DNA of 64,000 nt, from NCBI RefSeq assembly GCF_030013595.1, contig NZ_CP122768.1. One strand, given 5' to 3'. The notes under the pieces are model-generated. The model worked only from the letters and a program-made list of their open reading frames with translations. It did not search any database and was not told the DNA's origin. The position numbers were made by a program, and so were the translations under genes. Origin of the DNA: Escherichia coli. GTDB lineage: Bacteria > Pseudomonadota > Gammaproteobacteria > Enterobacterales > Enterobacteriaceae. Of the stretch, positions 44,047 through 51,524 are shown one piece after another. Each line of letters opens with the position of its first letter. The stretch's first letter is position 1.

Positions 44047-44072
44047 CGTATAGCTTAACGTGTAGCTAAAAA
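44047..44072. repeat. 26-nt direct repeat (candidate integrase arm-type site), distal copy
   Basis: CGTATAGCTTAACGTGTAGCTAAAAA differs by 1 nt from CGTATAGCTAAACGTGTAGCTAAAAA at 54028-54053. Confidence 0.6.
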
Positions 44073-44622
44073 TGTTTGCTGCAAAAGTATACAATTTTAA
44101 CCGTTATGACTCCCTGTTATCCGTTATCAAGCTGGTGGATGATCATGGATAACCCGTTATGGGAATCCCCATATCGGCATCAGGCCCATGCCATAACAAA
44201 AACCCCATATTCGTGGGTTTTCTGTGTTGTGGCTATTCTGCCGTTGCCGTGCTGGTGGATATTTCCGGTATGTGGCTCACCATATCGGCATCACGCCCAC
44301 CAGCGCGACGCATTTTTTTAATTTCGCGGGTGTAAAAATTTGACGGGGCGGGCGGTCCTATAAGCAATGGGGGGTAGGGATTTCGATCCCCCCTCCTGAA
44401 TGCAATTTTCCGTATGTGGCTGTGCGGCAATCATACTCGTCACATGTTTTTGACAATAAAAGGCCCGACCGTGAGACTCACAAACAAAAAAGTTACGGAG
44501 AAACAGGGGATCGGGCTCGGTTGCCGCTAAATCTATTCAATTAAAAGAAGATGTCAATAGGGAAAACGAAAAAAAACAATGCTGATATTGTCATAATTTG
44601 AACAAAACCACTATATGTAGTT

Positions 44623-44853
44623 TTAGTTCATGAGGTTAGTCGCTACCAGATGCGTCAATAGTTTTTTGCTATTAATAATCCCTCTTTTTCCATCGGGAGC
44701 TTTGCACTTGTCACTACCTGGTAACTCCTGGTGGCGTTCCTGTTGCAGCACAACGGAAACAGGCGCTGAACACCTGTTAATTTTGCTTGCAGGTTGTTTG
44801 ATTTCGGCAATGCTGCGGATCATCTCCAGCATATCGGCTTCGGTGATGGTCAT
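44623..44853 (-). CDS. hypothetical small protein (76 aa)
   Basis: The ORF is preceded by an AAGGTG Shine-Dalgarno 6 nt from the ATG. I recognise no family, and it lies in an otherwise ORF-poor region. Confidence 0.35.
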   Translation of the reverse strand: MTITEADMLEMIRSIAEIKQPASKINRCSAPVSVVLQQERHQELPGSDKCKAPDGKRGIINSKKLLTHLVATNLMN

Positions 44854-44884
44854 GATTTACACCTTAGGAAATCTTAGGGGCTGG

Positions 44885-45142
44885 TTGACACTTTCCGGCT
44901 TAAGACCTTAACAAATCTTAACATCGCAGGTTGACACACTTGACACTTTTTCGCGAAAAACCTTATCAAACCTTAGCATTTCTAAGCATGGCAACTTGAC
45001 ACTTTTCGCGATTTTTTCGGCTTTTTGACGTGGTAAATCTGGCGCAAAGCCAGTAACGGCGGGGTTTACAGCGAGGTTGACACTTTTTCGCGTTCAGAGT
45101 GTAAAGTGTCAACCTGGCAAGCTGCTCAACTTGACACTTTTT
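44885..45142. repeat. iteron array TTGACACTTT(TT)CGCG (at least 6 direct copies plus 1 inverted)
   Basis: Copies start at 44885, 44931, 44940, 44996, 45077 and 45131, with one inverted copy at 45103-45112. They are interspersed with CCTTA(G/A/T) repeats and lie between the Nu1-like gene and the 76-aa ORF. Confidence 0.8.
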
Positions 45143-45146
45143 GAGG

Positions 45147-45674
45147 TCATTGATGGCCTGATTTTTCCCACTCAGCCAGGGCGTTTAGTCCGGCTTCACT
45201 CCAGTTATCCAGCTCATCGGGACAATCACCTGCAACATAGCAGAGCTCACAACGCAGCATACGAATTGCCAGCCTGGCATTTTCCCGAAAATCATACTGC
45301 TCAAAGTAATATTGCCCAGCATAATCCTCAAGGCAGATAGCACCATCATCAAGAAATTGCACTTCACAGCATAGTTCCCCGGCTGCATCCTGTACACGCT
45401 GCTGTATGTCATTGTCCGTTACTGGTGCAGGGATTTTACCGTCTCTGGCCTTAACTGCTTTCCAGAACTCGCCCCACGTCATTTCCAGCGTTCTCTCTGG
45501 CCACATTTCAGAAACGGTATCTTTTCCCTGTGCTGGTGGGCTGTTCCGCTGCTCTGTCGCTTCCACATCGATTTTTTTACCGGACATGACCACTTCGCCT
45601 TTCTCGATCCAGTCGTAAACTGTCTGGCGGCTTACGCCTTTGTGTTTGGCATATTCTGCCTTGCTCATAAACAT
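45147..45674 (-). CDS. protein with a lambda Nu1 (small terminase)-like N-terminal HTH; candidate packaging-specificity factor
   Basis: 175 aa. The N-terminus SKAEYAKHKGVSRQTVYDWIEKGEV resembles lambda Nu1 NKKQLADIFGASIRTIQNWQEQGMPV. The rest is unrecognised and Cys-rich. A good Shine-Dalgarno (GAGGGGAAG) precedes the start. Confidence 0.55.
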   Translation of the reverse strand: MFMSKAEYAKHKGVSRQTVYDWIEKGEVVMSGKKIDVEATEQRNSPPAQGKDTVSEMWPERTLEMTWGEFWKAVKARDGKIPAPVTDNDIQQRVQDAAGELCCEVQFLDDGAICLEDYAGQYYFEQYDFRENARLAIRMLRCELCYVAGDCPDELDNWSEAGLNALAEWEKSGHQ

Positions 45675-45844
45675 GACACTTCCCCTCAGACTGTATTAAT
45701 GCGCCGGAAAGCGCGTGTATTTAAATCATCCCAGGAACCGTTGAGCACCAATTAGTTGCGCGAAGTAATCGGCACCAGCGTTCCGAACAATTTCCAACTT
45801 AACGTTCTGATCATTGTTTCCTGCTGCAGGGACAATCCCACGAT

Positions 45845-46498
45845 TCATAGCCAGCGCCCGGATATTTCTTCCAGTTTTTCCAGAGCTGGCTTGCAGGCCG
45901 CATCAATAACTTCACGGACCATTCCGGCGAGCTGTTCTTCTTCTGTCGGCGTTGTTACTTCCACACCTGATGGTTTCCCGCCCTTATCCCATACGCCCAA
46001 CGGTACGAGCGCAACGTGATCGATAAGAAATGGCGTACCCTCAATGAAAAAATTGTCCTCGCCCATTACATCAGGAACTTCTGCCCCACCGGACGCACCA
46101 CAAAACACAACCGACGGGCTGGTGGATACCTCCCCCCGTGCTTTCTGGATGTAATCGATGATTTCCTGCCCGTAAATCCGGCATACGCCCCACACCTCGT
46201 CACCGCGAATATACGGCAACATGACGGTGCCAATAATGCGCGACCGTTCGCCCACGTCTTCAAGGGTTTTGCTTTCGGGATGGTCGATAATGACGGGTAC
46301 TCCGGCGCAACGTTCCAGGAACTGCGGATTGAGATAAGTTTGCGGTGAACGCCAGACAAATTCTTTTTCTTCGGCGCGATAGGCCATTCCGGTTCCTGTG
46401 ATACGCAGGTTAATCAGCCACATGTTGGAAAACTGATAAGGCGACGGTAGCTGACCGTCCCGAATCTGCTTTGCCGCCTCAATTTCTGTTAAAAGCAT
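45845..46498 (-). CDS. DUF2213-like protein (phage scaffold/prohead-protease-like family)
   Basis: 217 aa. The motifs GVPVIIDHPES, IGTV and IDHVALVPLGVWDKGG follow the pattern I remember for DUF2213. This has not been verified by HMM. Confidence 0.5.
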   Translation of the reverse strand: MLLTEIEAAKQIRDGQLPSPYQFSNMWLINLRITGTGMAYRAEEKEFVWRSPQTYLNPQFLERCAGVPVIIDHPESKTLEDVGERSRIIGTVMLPYIRGDEVWGVCRIYGQEIIDYIQKARGEVSTSPSVVFCGASGGAEVPDVMGEDNFFIEGTPFLIDHVALVPLGVWDKGGKPSGVEVTTPTEEEQLAGMVREVIDAACKPALEKLEEISGRWL

Positions 46499-46562
46499 AA
46501 TGTCCCCCGGTTATAAGCAATAAGCCCCACCAAATCCGGCAGGGCTGAAATCAGCACGTTTT

Positions 46563-47147
46563 TCATGCCCCCGCGAGGCTTGCAACGTTAATTTTAACCA
46601 GGCGACGGGGAGGGATTTTGAAAGCACTAAGCCAGTTATTCGGATCCCCCTGATATTCAGTAATCCGCCGTCCGGCTTCATCCATTCTTACGGTTTTACG
46701 CAAATAGCCCGGCGTATTTTCCACAGCCCACTGAACACTGTCTTTTGCAGCCTGGTAAATCTGATCTTCCAGCACCGCCAGCGTTGCAGAATCTGAAACG
46801 GAACGAATATCCACATCACTGAATTTTTTAGCCAGCTTCTGTGCACCAATTAATGCACGCTTGCGGTAATCCATCGACTTTTCACCAGCAAACGGGGCTG
46901 GAGCGCGACGGCCCATATTGCTGTATGCGGAATCCGCTTTAGCCTGGGCTTCTGCCAGTGAGGATTCATCTTCGACTGACGCGACGATGTTTTTATTCGC
47001 GTCATCCTCGTCCGCTTTTGTGAAATCCTGTGCGGGGATCGCATTCAGAATTTCGATAATCTCCTGCGGAGTGCTGCCCTGCGACTCTGACAGAGCGTTA
47101 ACCACCTCCATCAGTTTTAATCGCAAATCTTCTTTGCTTGCTGGCAT
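46563..47147 (-). CDS. hypothetical protein (194 aa) with an acidic N-terminal half
   Basis: The ORF has a GAGAGG Shine-Dalgarno before the ATG at 47147; the ORF track begins 9 nt earlier at a GTG. I recognise no family. It lies immediately upstream of the DUF2213-like gene. Confidence 0.5.
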   Translation of the reverse strand: MPASKEDLRLKLMEVVNALSESQGSTPQEIIEILNAIPAQDFTKADEDDANKNIVASVEDESSLAEAQAKADSAYSNMGRRAPAPFAGEKSMDYRKRALIGAQKLAKKFSDVDIRSVSDSATLAVLEDQIYQAAKDSVQWAVENTPGYLRKTVRMDEAGRRITEYQGDPNNWLSAFKIPPRRLVKINVASLAGA

Positions 47148-47186
47148 TTTTACCACCTCTCTTTTTTCACCAAAAAATCACGACCA

Positions 47187-47360
47187 TCAGGCCGGACGTT
47201 CTACGGGATAAAGCGCCCGCTGCATTAAACGCCGGGCGACCTCATGAATGCTCGGAGCAATCCCCAGCGGAGAATTGCGGCGTTCCTCGTCCTGGATGCG
47301 CTGTAATGCTTCAATCTGATCACGAGCGAGTAAAACGGGTTTCACGCTGGCTTTTCTCAT
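47187..47360 (-). CDS. hypothetical small protein (57 aa)
   Basis: An AGGAG Shine-Dalgarno lies 8 nt before the ATG at 47360; alternative ATGs are at 47366 and 47384. It is the first ORF after the tandem terminators. Confidence 0.45.
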   Translation of the reverse strand: MRKASVKPVLLARDQIEALQRIQDEERRNSPLGIAPSIHEVARRLMQRALYPVERPA

Positions 47361-47486
47361 AGTCATATCTCCTGAACAAAACAATGATTATGATTGCACA
47401 AACTGAAATAACGATCTACATCATTGCAATTTATGAAACAATAACGCATGATGATCGCGTTCTTCCCATTGACTTCAATCACCTGA

Positions 47487-47525
47487 AAAACAAAGCCCGC
47501 AACACTTCTGGCTGCGGGTTTTTTA
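47487..47525. terminator. hairpin with T-runs on both strands
   Basis: A CCCGCA-N11-TGCGGG hairpin is followed by TTTTTT on the plus strand and by TTTGTTTTT on the minus strand. Confidence 0.55.
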
Positions 47526-47531
47526 CTGGCA

Positions 47532-47557
47532 CAAAAAAGCCGGGAAAAATCCCGGCC
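47532..47557 (-). terminator. rho-independent terminator after the PerC-like gene
   Basis: The minus strand reads GCCGGGA-tttt-TCCCGGC followed by TTTTTT, 5 nt after the stop codon. Confidence 0.75.
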
Positions 47558-47561
47558 TCCG

Positions 47562-47849
47562 TCACTGACTGCAATTTTTCGATCCAGGGTATTTCCTGAA
47601 TGCCTTACCATTGGGCTGATGTAATCCCATCCCGGCATGTGCCCGGCTGATGGTTTCGCGCATTTCCCCGAAATTATCCTGCCTTGCTGGTGGGCGTGCT
47701 GCCTTGCGGATACATTCCGCGCGACGTTTTGCCGCCTGTTCCCGTGCCTTGTCATCATTCGCCAGCATGATGACCTCAGCCCACCGCGCCGCCGCTCTCC
47801 GGTACAGACCACGCGCTTCCAGTGCTTCCGCTTTGCTGTCGTGAATCAT
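47562..47849 (-). CDS. PerC/Pch-like transcriptional regulator
   Basis: 95 aa. The N-terminal AEALEARGLYRRAAARWAEV matches the PerC-family signature as I recall it. Its start overlaps the upstream gene's stop by 4 nt. Confidence 0.55.
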   Translation of the reverse strand: MIHDSKAEALEARGLYRRAAARWAEVIMLANDDKAREQAAKRRAECIRKAARPPARQDNFGEMRETISRAHAGMGLHQPNGKAFRKYPGSKNCSQ

Positions 47850-48388
47850 GCGCCTGTTTTCTCCTTTGCTGCCCGGCGCTGACGTTTGCGCTTCTCATTC
47901 AGCGCCACCAGCCGCGTTTCTGCGTCCTGTTGTTCCTGTGGTGTCACCTCGCCGCACGGCTGGCCTTTCAGGTCGTAGCGTACCCCACCAGCCATTAAGG
48001 CGCGGTAATAGCGCGGACACTGCGCATAAGATGCCAGCGTCGCACGCAATGCCCCTGGACCGAATGCCAGCCCCCTGACGGCGAGATCCTGCATCAGGTC
48101 GTCGAATATCCCCACCTTAAGCGGCTTCGGTGCTTCCCGGCTGAATAATTCAGGCCACAACTCAGTGAGGCGGTTAACGCGCCTGCGGTTTTTGCGCTGG
48201 CGTTTGGTCATATGCCGCCACGGTGTCGCCCCTGTGGGCTTCTGCTGCGCTTTCTGGTTACCGGGCATCACTTTATGCGCCGATGTGGTTTTATCCTGCT
48301 CCTGCGCCGCCTGCGTCGTTTTCTGCGGCGTGCCGTAAATGCCTTTCGGTTTTCTGTTAATGGTCAGCTTAGTCATGCTTTGCCCCAT
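47846..48388 (-). CDS. FinO/ProQ-domain RNA-binding protein
   Basis: 180 aa. KPLKVGIFDDL ... LRATLASYAQCPRYYRAL..GGVRYDLKGQPCGEV aligns with E. coli ProQ RPLKIGIFQDL ... [35 protein letters not shown]. Both the N- and C-terminal tails are basic. Confidence 0.8.
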   Translation of the reverse strand: MGQSMTKLTINRKPKGIYGTPQKTTQAAQEQDKTTSAHKVMPGNQKAQQKPTGATPWRHMTKRQRKNRRRVNRLTELWPELFSREAPKPLKVGIFDDLMQDLAVRGLAFGPGALRATLASYAQCPRYYRALMAGGVRYDLKGQPCGEVTPQEQQDAETRLVALNEKRKRQRRAAKEKTGA

Positions 48389-48537
48389 CGTTTTTACTGG
48401 TTGCTACGTTGCCCAACGGCACTGACACAACATTCTGTTTTCATTTTTAACATTCCTGATTTTTTAATTCCTCACCTGCTGCACAGTGAAAATTTATGAA
48501 GTTAATAACAATATGATTTTAAATGTATTTTTAAGTA

Positions 48538-48856
48538 CTCACTTTTTAATCCTTATATATACGCAAAAGTGAGGTAAATAGTTAAGTTTTAGTTAATATC
48601 TTGCATGGTGTGTTTTTTAACCTACCTGTTATTTTTATTACCTCATTTCTATTAACTCACCATTCCTCACTTTTGTTCCTCACTTTTTATTATTCTTGTT
48701 CTGCTCCTCAGTCGTTTTCTTTATTGTTGTAATCTGTTGTTTTGCAATGTGTTTTTAACTCCTCACTTTTTGACCTATATACAGGTGAGAAAGTGAGGAG
48801 TGGCGTTGATTTTTTGTTAAATTACCCGCCATCCTCACTTTTGCTCCTCACTTTTT
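48538..48856. repeat. iteron array CCTCACTTTT(T) in AT-rich DNA: candidate island replication origin
   Basis: Direct copies lie at 48538, 48665, 48678, 48761, 48833 and 48846. Inverted copies lie at 48565-48574 and 48789-48800, and there are degenerate copies as well. The array is immediately downstream of the helicase gene. Confidence 0.75.
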
Positions 48857-50270
48857 ACAGTGGGCGCACATAATCACCGTCAATAGCGATTACGCCGTCG
48901 CTTTCCAGCTTGTACAGCCAGCGCCGGAAGTGTTTCATCTCATACCCCAGCTTTTTCATATCATCGCGGAGAAGGGCGATAGTGCACGCCTCCCCGTGTG
49001 CTGTTCGCGTTCTGATGCACTGCCATAGCGCAGCGTGATTTTCCGTCTTGTTCCCGGCCTCCTCGATGCGTTCCAGTTCAACAGGTGGGCGCGGCTTATC
49101 CACAACCACCAGCGACGTGATTAACTCCCCGTCAGTGTCGGTAAAAAGCTCCACCACGCGTAAATCATATGCAGCCTCTTTCAGTTCCTCCGCGTCCTTC
49201 ATTTTGGTGCAGGAGATAACCAGGGCTTCACTGTCCGCACCTTCACGGCGAATACGGTATTCAGCGTCCAGAGATGCACGAAATGCACTGGAACCACGCG
49301 CCCCTTTTGTTTCATCCTTGCCGGAATGGTGAACCACCAGTACCGTGGCCCCTGTGCGTCGTTTCAGTTCGTCACATCCACGGATAAACGCCCCCATATC
49401 CCGCGCGTCATTTTCATCATTACCGCCAAAGCAACGCGCCAGCGTATCCAGAATAATCATGCGTACCGGTTTACCCGTTTCCCGTTCAACCTGACGGGAA
49501 GCGATGACCATTTCATCAACATCAAGCGGGACCGCCGGAAAAATCGGGCGGTTTACCAGGTACAGATTTTTCACCCGTTCATCATTAACGATTTCCCATG
49601 CTTTGATACGACGAGGAACACCGATCCCGCCCTCACCAACGACATACATAACCGCACCATGTACAACCCTGCGACCTCCCCAGTGGCGACCAGTGGCAAC
49701 ATGACACGCCCAGGAACACGCGAGGAACGATTTATAGGAACCGCTCGCGCCGTATGTGCTGCACAACGAATTAGCCGGAATCACGCCCTTAACGACATAA
49801 TCAAGCTGTGTGTCGTATCCTGCAGATCCAATACTCATTGGTAGCGTGGTTTTTCGCTGGCTGTATTGCTCGTCAGTAAGTATTTCCCCGCGCTCTGCCT
49901 GTTCGCGGATCCGTTGCAGGTAGTCGTGCCAGTTCTCCAGCTTCTGGCTGTGCATTCCCTCAGGGTAATAATTCGCATCCCGTACACCTGCCGCCGCCAG
50001 TTTTTGCCCGATGGCATTAATATTTGACGGCTTGATGTGGCCTGCCTTGTACAGCCGGACACAATAGCGACCATCGTCGATAATTTTCAGGTCTGCCAGT
50101 TCGTCAAGCTGGCTGTCTCCCAGCCATACAGGCGGAACATTGTCGCCAGCAAGTCGCCCGTCCTGTTCCTGCCATTGTTTCGCGTGCGCCCAGGCATCAC
50201 TACCCGCAAAAATAATGACTTCGGTCATTTTGTCGTGTGGCTGTTTTTTTAAGTTCGGTGCCAGTTTCAT
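48855..50270 (-). CDS. RepA/AAA_25-type replicative helicase-like initiator
   Basis: 471 aa with a RecA-fold core: Walker A-like GASGSYKS, Walker B MIILD and an HHSGK motif. The C-terminus is wHTH-like. It is translationally coupled to the upstream ORF. Confidence 0.7.
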   Translation of the reverse strand: MKLAPNLKKQPHDKMTEVIIFAGSDAWAHAKQWQEQDGRLAGDNVPPVWLGDSQLDELADLKIIDDGRYCVRLYKAGHIKPSNINAIGQKLAAAGVRDANYYPEGMHSQKLENWHDYLQRIREQAERGEILTDEQYSQRKTTLPMSIGSAGYDTQLDYVVKGVIPANSLCSTYGASGSYKSFLACSWACHVATGRHWGGRRVVHGAVMYVVGEGGIGVPRRIKAWEIVNDERVKNLYLVNRPIFPAVPLDVDEMVIASRQVERETGKPVRMIILDTLARCFGGNDENDARDMGAFIRGCDELKRRTGATVLVVHHSGKDETKGARGSSAFRASLDAEYRIRREGADSEALVISCTKMKDAEELKEAAYDLRVVELFTDTDGELITSLVVVDKPRPPVELERIEEAGNKTENHAALWQCIRTRTAHGEACTIALLRDDMKKLGYEMKHFRRWLYKLESDGVIAIDGDYVRPL

Positions 50271-50566
50271 TTTGTGCCCCTGAATGCGTTAATCATGTTT
50301 TTCATTTTCTGAATATTTGCCCGTGCCTTTGCGTTGCTGGTGGGCTGTTTGCGTGGTGTGGCCTGTATCAGTGAAAAATCACGCCGGAACTGATAAACAG
50401 GCATCACGCAGTCGTAGCTGTACCCATCACGGCGGTAAGTAACGCACCGTCCGGCAATACTTTTAATCGTTACCGTGCCGCCGTAGTTATCCCGGAAAAT
50501 ATCGCCGGGGCGGATTTCAGGCCGAGGGAGACCACTGGCAGTAAAGCCAGAATTTTTCTTTTTCAT
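50267..50566 (-). CDS. hypothetical protein (99 aa)
   Basis: The ORF overlaps the rep start by 4 nt. I could not confidently recognise a family. Confidence 0.5.
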   Translation of the reverse strand: MKKKNSGFTASGLPRPEIRPGDIFRDNYGGTVTIKSIAGRCVTYRRDGYSYDCVMPVYQFRRDFSLIQATPRKQPTSNAKARANIQKMKNMINAFRGTK

Positions 50567-50570
50567 GGTT

Positions 50571-50771
50571 TTATTTTCCTGTCAGCAGTTCCGGTTTTAT
50601 TTCCGCACGAATACAGAGTTCAGAAAAAAATTCAGGAGAACCAACAATCTCATTACTTTTCAGTCGGCATTGTGATTTCACTTTCCCTTTATCCAGGTAA
50701 ACCAGTATGCGTCCGGTGAAATCATCTGGCACACTCAGGGTAATTGTCATTGTTGCTTGCTGATTATCCAT
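50571..50771 (-). CDS. hypothetical protein carrying one copy of the FTG(R/Q) module (66 aa)
   Basis: It shares the pattern FTGRILVYLDKGKV...VGSPEFFSEL with both halves of the upstream 121-aa protein. Confidence 0.5.
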   Translation of the reverse strand: MDNQQATMTITLSVPDDFTGRILVYLDKGKVKSQCRLKSNEIVGSPEFFSELCIRAEIKPELLTGK

Positions 50772-51129
50772 GATTCACCCCCTGAATAACCTGATAACCG
50801 CAACTGGTCAGCAATTCGATAAATTCCGGCAGTGTTCCGAAACAGCAATCATCTCGCAGCCGTTCTCGGGATACTTCAACGCCGTTTTCGTAGTGACTCA
50901 CCATGCGTCCGGTAAAATGCAGATCATCATCGTGATGGCTCGTTAACGGCTTAATCAGTCGCGCACGTTCTGCCAGCTCCAGCAATGCTTCAACGCTTCC
51001 GGCAATTGCACCATCCGGCAGGTGATAATTACTTGCCACGCGTCCATTCTCCACGTTAACCAGTAGCTGCCCGGTGAATTTCTCATCAAACTGAATGCTG
51101 TTAAGGTCAGAAATTGACAGGTTAATCAT
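50764..51129 (-). CDS. hypothetical protein carrying two tandem copies of the FTG(R/Q) module (121 aa)
   Basis: Internal duplication: FTGQLLVNVENGRV...AGSVEALLEL and FTGRMVSHYENGVEV...FGTLPEFIEL. It overlaps both neighbouring genes by 8 nt. Confidence 0.55.
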   Translation of the reverse strand: MINLSISDLNSIQFDEKFTGQLLVNVENGRVASNYHLPDGAIAGSVEALLELAERARLIKPLTSHHDDDLHFTGRMVSHYENGVEVSRERLRDDCCFGTLPEFIELLTSCGYQVIQGVNHG

Positions 51130-51325
51130 GGCGTACCTCCTGGCGAATACGGGCAGCGAATACCATCACGCAGCCATCAGGAGATTGCTGACGCGCTTCC
51201 TGTTCGCTGGTGGCCTCAATGGTAATCACGCGCGGTTGTGCCGTGCTCAGGGCGATAAAACGCCAGATGTATTTATTCAGGTTGTGCGAGTCCCGCCCTT
51301 GCGGGTGTGTGGTATGATTTCTCAT
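51122..51325 (-). CDS. Icd-like small protein (67 aa)
   Basis: This is the 3' third of the 286-aa ORF-track entry, starting at MRNHTTHPQGRDSH. The segment YIWRFIALS...IEATSEQEARQQSP.GCVMVFAARIRQE resembles proteins annotated as host cell division inhibitor Icd-like in satellite islands. That match is from memory only. Confidence 0.5.
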   Translation of the reverse strand: MRNHTTHPQGRDSHNLNKYIWRFIALSTAQPRVITIEATSEQEARQQSPDGCVMVFAARIRQEVRHD

Positions 51326-51422
51326 AGCTACCTCGATACTCTTTCTATCGTTGGTGGTTAGAAGCCCCGTTACTGCTCCAACAGTGCGGGGTTTCGTCGT
51401 TTCTGTGCCTTGCATTAACAAG

Positions 51423-51504
51423 GTGTAAGACACAATGTAAAATACAAGTGTCTTACACGTCAAGCCTTCAAAATAATTTTTTTTCGTGTATATTGTCTTA
51501 CACC
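51423..51504. promoter_or_regulatory. operator-like repeats in the divergent control region
   Basis: GTGTAAGACAC (51423-51433) and its exact inverted copy GTGTCTTACAC (51448-51458) are joined by a third copy, GTCTTACACC (51495-51504). They lie between the Icd-like operon and the plus-strand RHH-like gene. Confidence 0.6.
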
Positions 51505-51524
51505 AACAACATAAGGAGTTAGAC

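Follow-up and report, generated by a model that had tools for sequence, protein, structure and literature searches.

The cos site of phage lambda is organised as cosQ-cosN-cosB, with the sites R3, R2 and R1 and the integration host factor (IHF) site I1, and is bound by gpNu1. In the pac site of P1, with its flanking hexamer repeats, and in the pacL-pacC-pacR arrangement of SPP1, repeated motifs flank a central cleavage segment. Among phage-inducible chromosomal islands (PICIs), published genetics established that a heterocomplex of Rpp and the terminase small subunit (TerS) recognises the PICI cosB (PMC6739421; PMC6092414), and many Gram-negative PICIs have no recognisable packaging module and have been scored as doubtful or defective, as in the case of EcCIMP1 (PMC11773190). 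Here, we describe a repeat array in a 64,000-nt stretch of Escherichia coli DNA (contig NZ_CP122768.1 of assembly GCF_030013595.1, hereafter the window). The array (44855-45146) is conserved across genera and lies between the stop codon (45147) of a minus-strand gene for a 175-aa protein (45147-45674) and the start (44853) of a 76-aa open reading frame (ORF; 44623-44853, minus strand). The cis element is real, composite and strongly conserved, and together with one or two small, putative DNA-binding proteins it constitutes a module of PICI-type satellites. With moderate confidence, we propose from comparative evidence that it is the cosB/pac-like packaging recognition region of such a satellite of ~10 kb and that it is bound by the 175-aa protein.

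As a reference for the Rpp system, we used EcCICFT073 (Fillol-Salom et al. 2019, PMC6739421; PDB 6HLK and 6HN7), which we located in the CFT073 genome. The order in that island is PerC, capsid-related genes, rppA (144 aa, encoding a winged helix-turn-helix (wHTH) protein), cos, a small ORF starting MTEAE and the island end. Between rppA and the downstream cosN, the 10-mer ATGTCCGGTT is present in two direct copies and one inverted copy. The island in the window is a PICI-type phage satellite of ~10 kb that carries, on the minus strand, genes for an integrase, AlpA, an AAA_25 primase-replicase, a ProQ/FinO protein and PerC, with the late genes after them. At its late end, also on the minus strand, come a 65-aa ORF (p65), two protease/scaffold-related ORFs, the 175-aa gene as the last gene of the late operon, the array and the 76-aa ORF. 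The 175-aa gene and the array occupy the position that rppA and cos hold in EcCICFT073.

The array contains seven TTGACAC cores within 44885-45140, six of which are exact copies of TTGACACTTT. Five of the exact copies are on the plus strand, starting at 44885, 44940, 44996, 45077 and 45131, and one is on the minus strand (45103-45112); the seventh core is at 44931, and degenerate TTTACAC copies are found at 44856 (plus strand) and 45099-45105 (minus strand). These exact positions and variants agree with the count of at least six direct copies and one inverted copy made in a first-pass annotation of the window. The rest of the window holds no exact TTGACACTTT, the remaining matches all having one mismatch and lying outside the array. 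Judged by the rest of the window, 301 nt should hold 0.028 TTGACAC cores, and the array region has seven (Poisson P = 2.9e-15). The first-pass annotation had further described the repeat unit as 16 nt long. Its core is upheld but its length is not: the CGCG tail is present in only three TTGACACTTT copies (44940, 44996 and 45077), and the family-wide repeat consensus is (G)GTTGACACTTT(T).

Three ~55-bp units on the plus strand (44885-45010, with starts at 44885, 44940 and 44996), which share 78% identity, make up the left part of the array; in the first two, TTGACACTTT precedes a tandem CTTA(R) pair. The interleaved CCTTA(G/A/T) repeats reported earlier are confirmed, and they are arranged as tandem pairs offset by exactly 10 bp: a CTTAG pair (44863/44873) just to the left of the first unit, a CTTAAC pair (44907/44917) in the first unit and a CCTTA pair (44961/44971) in the second. 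Across 79 related arrays, identical 5-mers recur at the 10-bp offset 653 times versus ~26 in shuffles, a count that is inflated by relatedness among the arrays. The words that recur differ by subfamily and include TTAAG, CTAAG, TTGAG and GTTAT.

Between the left units and the inverted pair on the right lies a central element without repeats (45013-45076). Its core, CAAAGCCAGTAACGGC (45045-45060), which reads GCCGTTACTGGCTTTG in the gene orientation, is kept in Escherichia, Raoultella, Pantoea, Serratia and Erwinia, and we regard the element as a candidate terminase cleavage or entry point. The adjoining convergent inverted pair, TTGACACTTT-N16-AAAGTGTCAA (45077-45112), is the invariant core of the family, in which the spacing is fixed at 16-17 nt and the spacer sequence varies. 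The gene-proximal TTGACACTTT copy (45131-45140, plus strand) is separated by 7 nt from the stop codon of that gene for the 175-aa protein and corresponds to position -25 in group A arrays. A search of Rfam gave no family match inside the array.

To compare the array with its relatives, we used two sets of loci, one selected by protein and the other by DNA. The protein-selected set comprised 23 loci from one-genome-per-species contigs. The 400-nt stretches downstream of the gene in these loci contain 47 TTGACAC sites in 8.6 kb, against 19 in 256 kb elsewhere, a 74-fold higher density that includes genera whose protein identity is only 34-39%. For the DNA-selected set, IMG/VR was scanned for the inverted pair alone, which yielded 116 contigs, mostly of 10-17 kb, 80 of which were fetched. 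A homolog of the 175-aa protein is encoded beside the inverted pair in 72 of the 80, with its 3' end within ~100 bp. The eight contigs lacking the protein mostly have a different pair spacing, and the one checked (L097) is without a terminase nearby. The span of the inverted pair from 7-mer to 7-mer is 36-37 nt in 72 of 73 arrays, with a spacer sequence that depends on the subfamily, and arrays have between two and nine copies, the window's island being among the richest. The comparison across homologous islands that the first-pass annotation had proposed links array and protein in both directions. Neither an RppA homolog (by tblastn) nor lambda cosN occurs in 103 related loci; the TTGACAC module and the Rpp/lambda-cos module are mutually exclusive. 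Within the window's island, lambda cosN gave only chance-level matches, at 2-3 mismatches, and GGGCGGCGACCT was not found above chance within 3 mismatches.

An AlphaFold model of the 175-aa protein (predicted local distance difference test score 88) shows an N-terminal wHTH (residues 1-43) and a lineage-restricted alpha/beta C-domain (residues 60-170) separated by a disordered linker. In the alignment of homologs, all of which are annotated as hypothetical and come from Enterobacterales only, the first ~41 residues are near-invariant and the remainder falls to 33% identity. The pattern is shared by the DNA: HTH residues and motif are both near-invariant, whereas C-domain and spacers diverge. 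Pfam returned HTH models only, below thresholds. The PHROG terminase-small-subunit profile matches residues 1-42 with E = 5e-7, a PHROG Cox-like match was also found, the excisionase HTH model TIGR01764 matches with E = 0.003, and weak NCBIfam matches of the HTH are to RacR and excisionase-type regulators. In fold comparisons, the wHTH scored 7.0 against Xis, 6.4 against a TerS DNA-binding domain, 6.2 against lambda TerS from the Rpp complex, 6.1 against BldC, 5.9 against P2 Cox and 5.6 against RppC. The earlier label of a Nu1-like protein therefore suits the first ~43 residues, as a statement about the fold class of the DNA-binding domain, but not the rest of the chain, and even there Xis scores as well as TerS; the protein lies outside the Rpp family. 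Apart from this HTH, none of the island ORFs searched in Pfam and PHROGs matches a TerS family. We propose the 175-aa protein as the putative binder of the TTGACAC sites.

The excisionase matches have a bearing on a second possible function, in which the 175-aa protein would be an Xis-like recombination directionality factor (RDF) and the repeats would be RDF sites and integrase arm sites in an attP arm. Besides TIGR01764 and the Cox-like match, the position of the array within the terminal kilobase of the island is in keeping with such a role, and Xis proteins bind direct-repeat arrays. However, the island (9.98 kb) is bounded by a 26-nt att direct repeat (left copy 44047-44072, plus strand; right copy 54028-54053), and the array begins ~780 bp inside it, not within ~200 bp of the att core, at a distance that varies among relatives. 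AlpA, moreover, is already present next to int. The comparison with three related loci (L055, L101 and L103) also argues against an RDF, since RDFs normally co-vary with their own integrase. The half running from ProQ and PerC through p65 to the wHTH gene and array (window 44600-48400) is >90% conserved in these loci, and the same module (90-97% protein identity) stands there beside integrases that are 34-37% and AlpA proteins that are 42% identical to those of the window (50270-53962), with replicases at 57-61%. The module is thus independent of integrase type, and we consider a role in excision or integration quite unlikely. Because the right half is >90% conserved while integrase, AlpA and replicase diverge, the comparison shows that PICI halves are exchanged as modules, with the putative packaging-slot module shuffled among integrase lineages.

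A second protein that may act on the array is p65 (47187-47384, minus strand), a ribbon-helix-helix (RHH) protein whose homologs begin at an internal Met at ~47360, giving 57 aa. Nearly all related islands carry both p65 and the 175-aa gene; the gene that fills this slot in EcCICFT073 is not a homolog of p65. Tandem sub-sites separated by about one helical turn are the usual targets of RHH dimers, and, speculatively, p65 is a candidate binder of the 10-bp-spaced CTTA(R) pairs. RHH and Xis/MerR-type wHTH proteins are also classic relaxosome accessory factors. The presence of both folds, together with a layout of inverted and direct repeats around a conserved non-repeat core that resembles an origin of transfer (oriT), would be compatible with an oriT-like site served by p65 and the wHTH protein, with a relaxase provided in trans by a conjugative element. 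We judge this to be very unlikely: none of the island ORFs encodes a relaxase, a search of 72,556 plasmids found no member of the protein family, the 190 occurrences in E. coli are all on the chromosome, and the module sits in the packaging slot of a PICI late operon.

The same two folds are typical of transcription factors, and the weak matches to RacR and excisionase-type regulators, as well as the position of the array immediately next to the 76-aa ORF start, are consistent with a transcriptional operator array. In this case the 175-aa protein, p65 or both would repress or activate the accessory region downstream, with its 76-aa ORF, or the array would be a terminator or insulator of the late operon. 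At its N terminus, the 76-aa ORF has a weak similarity to the small ORF downstream of cos in EcCICFT073. Its association with the array is not constant, the ORF being absent or ~750 bp away in close relatives that retain the array. The -35 hexamer (TTGACA) noted in each repeat does not appear to belong to a promoter either: a consensus scan found no sigma-70-like promoter in 44855-45146 and no TTGACA with a -10 box at 16-18 nt for any copy, and the majority of the hexamers face away from the 76-aa ORF. The architecture of the array is full in L018, L006 and L009, even though cargo separates it from the gene, and an operator would need far less than ~300 bp of DNA holding as many as nine sites and a conserved core free of repeats. 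We therefore regard an operator as unlikely, though it deserves more weight than the excision and oriT-like readings.

Direct repeats at a roughly regular spacing of ~55 bp also resemble iterons, as would be expected of a second replication origin or of a partition or incompatibility site. The island, however, already has a set of iterons, CCTCACTTTT, which adjoin the primase-replicase gene (48530-48857), 3.4 kb from the array, and which are separate from the repeats described here, as the first-pass annotation had recognised. The array tracks the 175-aa gene and not the replicase, which is only 45-62% identical in most array-sharing islands; the island encodes no partition ATPase, and PICIs replicate only after induction. 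A second origin is highly improbable, the least probable of the explanations considered here. The second origin and the operator for the 76-aa ORF had been offered as equally likely alternatives to a packaging site, and on this evidence both are weaker.

Of 5426 complete E. coli genomes, 169 contain the array region, always on the chromosome and always in this context, a distribution that rules out a generic E. coli repeat family. The island-bearing strains cq9 (NZ_CP031546) and ETEC4077 (NZ_CP122648) have 2-3 copies. The central 77 nt occur in only 164 complete E. coli genomes, all of them island-bearing, and always in unannotated DNA, never under prophage genes. Overall, ~3% of complete E. 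coli genomes carry the module, which is present in a dozen or more enterobacterial genera.

Several related loci depart from the arrangement seen in the window. Cargo genes lie between the gene and an intact array in L018, L006 and L009; in L018 (7157-10054; Serratia aquatilis), there are three, encoding proteins of 320, 80 and 571 aa, the last with a P-loop motif, and the insert is probably a cassette of accessory or defence genes in a PICI hotspot. In L012, of the Lelliottia/Enterobacter pair L012 and L014, proB-proA immediately precede the wHTH gene and array, and the fetched sequence upstream contains no recognisable island genes; a tblastn search of L014 with this island's proteins finds the wHTH gene only. 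These two loci look like island remnants that keep only the packaging-slot end. In Lelliottia wanjuensis (L020; 2386-3552, 4165-5361 and 5974-6171), tandemly repeated proteins of 388/398 aa combine the same N-terminal wHTH (43 aa, ~74% identity) with an unrelated domain of ~340 aa; a ~189-aa protein with a signal-like N terminus follows each fusion, and there is no TTGACAC array nearby. We considered L020 as a possible TerS with the same HTH and rejected it on account of the fusion to the ~340-aa domain in a non-phage cluster.

The ends of the island have features of their own. The att repeat lies ~120 bp beyond tRNA-Pro(GGG) (54172-54248), not within the tRNA gene. Repeats of the CCGTTATGGGnATCCCCATATCG type are found at the ends of both this island and EcCICFT073. 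Those of the CCGTTATGGGAATCCCCATATCGGCATCA type occur in the last 500 bp of the island (44154-44188 and 44265-44299) and also (L036, ~23975) at the end of EcCICFT073, an otherwise different PICI, and represent a shared terminal element.

The two island ORFs upstream of the 175-aa gene, of 217 aa (45845-46498) and 197 aa (46563-47156), both on the minus strand, are 54-65% identical to halves of a Rac-SA53 protein. The Rac-SA53 counterpart is a single 430-aa DUF2213 protease/scaffold-like protein, whose N- and C-terminal halves are both matched; in the island, each half has its own gene and the order is reversed, the C-part gene coming first, an arrangement that recurs in ~11 related loci, Pantoea included. 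They may form a capsid-remodelling pair. Rac-SA53 carries Terminase_2 and Terminase_6N genes, typical of headful packaging. Because the island genes resemble a Rac-SA53 protein and Rac-SA53 has headful-type terminase genes, the similarity hints, though weakly, at a helper of the pac type. The inverted-pair scan of IMG/VR was also used to look for the cos of a helper phage and returned satellites almost exclusively, and we found no phage terminase, portal or capsid genes beside related islands, as might be seen if an island were embedded in its helper.

A number of observations weigh against a packaging role. Linkage by itself cannot prove that the sites are bound by the 175-aa protein and not by some other factor. 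Outside the 28-43 residues of the HTH, the protein has no homology to TerS or Rpp: sequence and profile searches of the PDB (phmmer and profile) gave no Rpp or Nu1 match and did not retrieve 6HLK or 6HN7, and hhalign against RppA aligned 28 HTH columns at 33% probability. The HTH fold is common to excisionases and transcription factors. A search of 1.84 billion representatives with the C-domain gave 20 clusters and no tie to another known family, and because the C-domain is without known relatives, terminase contact through it is purely conjectural. No helper phage emerged from the phage-record, prophage and IMG/VR searches. A blastn comparison of the array DNA with 50,697 phage records gave one spurious 30-nt match, tblastn of the 175-aa protein against phage records gave none, and the central 77 nt are absent from E. 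coli prophages in all complete E. coli genomes. Since neither the array DNA nor the protein has a counterpart in a phage, there is no recognisable helper-derived cleavage site, unlike the situation in EcCICFT073. The clue from Rac-SA53 is not general, since protease/scaffold homologs are found in only ~11 of 103 related loci (including Pantoea), and the packaging region of Rac-SA53 has neither TTGACAC near its terminase genes nor words of the central element.

Weighed together, the comparative evidence (cross-genus linkage, the rppA-cos slot and the fold class of the HTH) favours the suggestion in the first-pass annotation of a cosB/pac-like array for the neighbouring HTH protein, which we infer on these grounds. 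A packaging mechanism could then run as follows. Induction of the island by a helper phage would lead to expression of the 175-aa protein from the late operon. Its wHTH domain would bind TTGACAC, with a dimer on the convergent pair (45077-45112) and further copies on the ~55-bp-spaced direct repeats across the central element, and p65 or a host bending protein may occupy the CTTA(R) pairs in between. The resulting nucleoprotein complex would present 45013-45076 to the helper terminase, which would be contacted via the family-specific C-domain. Because the complex would present the central element to the helper terminase, the satellite concatemer would then be packaged in preference to the phage.

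If the array is a packaging site, a transduction assay with the cloned array could identify helper phages, satellites could be annotated better, and engineered PICI delivery vehicles would gain a new orthogonal packaging signal. The candidate module can be searched for as a convergent TTGACACTTT pair at fixed spacing, accompanied by extra copies, a conserved core and one or two trans factors.

The closest parallel is with EcCICFT073. Both are islands of the same kind, with int, alpA, primase, PerC and late genes in that order, and in both the late operon closes with a small wHTH gene, after which come a cis site with repeats, a small ORF and the end of the island. The N-terminal domain of the 175-aa protein, in addition, belongs to the fold class of lambda TerS. 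The two differ in that the alpha/beta C-domain of the 175-aa protein is unrelated to the all-helical homo/heterodimerisation domain of Rpp, in that the repeat motif is TTGACACTTT here and ATGTCCGGTT there, and in that the repeats here lie on both sides of a central element and an RHH partner gene co-occurs. As a packaging site, the array would act like Rpp/cosB without membership of that family.

Lambda cos likewise has several short sites for an adjacently encoded wHTH protein, including an inverted pair, and AT-rich, possibly bendable elements between them. Here, in contrast, the site is downstream of the gene and comprises seven to nine sites on both flanks, and no IHF consensus was established in the comparison of the array with lambda cos. 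A further, possible likeness is to headful pac sites such as those of P1 and SPP1, in that the repeats at 44885-45005 and 45077-45140 flank the conserved 45013-45076, where cleavage would occur; the array differs from them in having no motif or protein homology and a neighbouring protein that is not a recognisable TerS. Proteins of the Xis/BldC type are wHTH proteins that bind direct repeats cooperatively, but the 175-aa protein has an extra C-domain of 110 residues, and its array lies well away from the att core and does not follow the lineage of the integrase. If the array does direct packaging, it would be a second, non-homologous solution to the problem solved by Rpp. Tentatively, and with less confidence than we place in the packaging site itself, we suggest that p65, the 175-aa wHTH protein and the TTGACAC/CTTA array may make up a hitherto unrecognised, self-contained packaging-specificity module, which would use neither a satellite TerS, as in the strategy of Staphylococcus aureus pathogenicity islands (SaPIs), nor an Rpp-type TerS mimic with a helper cosN, and by which a large class of 'unclassifiable' enterobacterial PICIs could capture terminases from helpers, possibly of the headful (pac) type, at a site private to the satellite.
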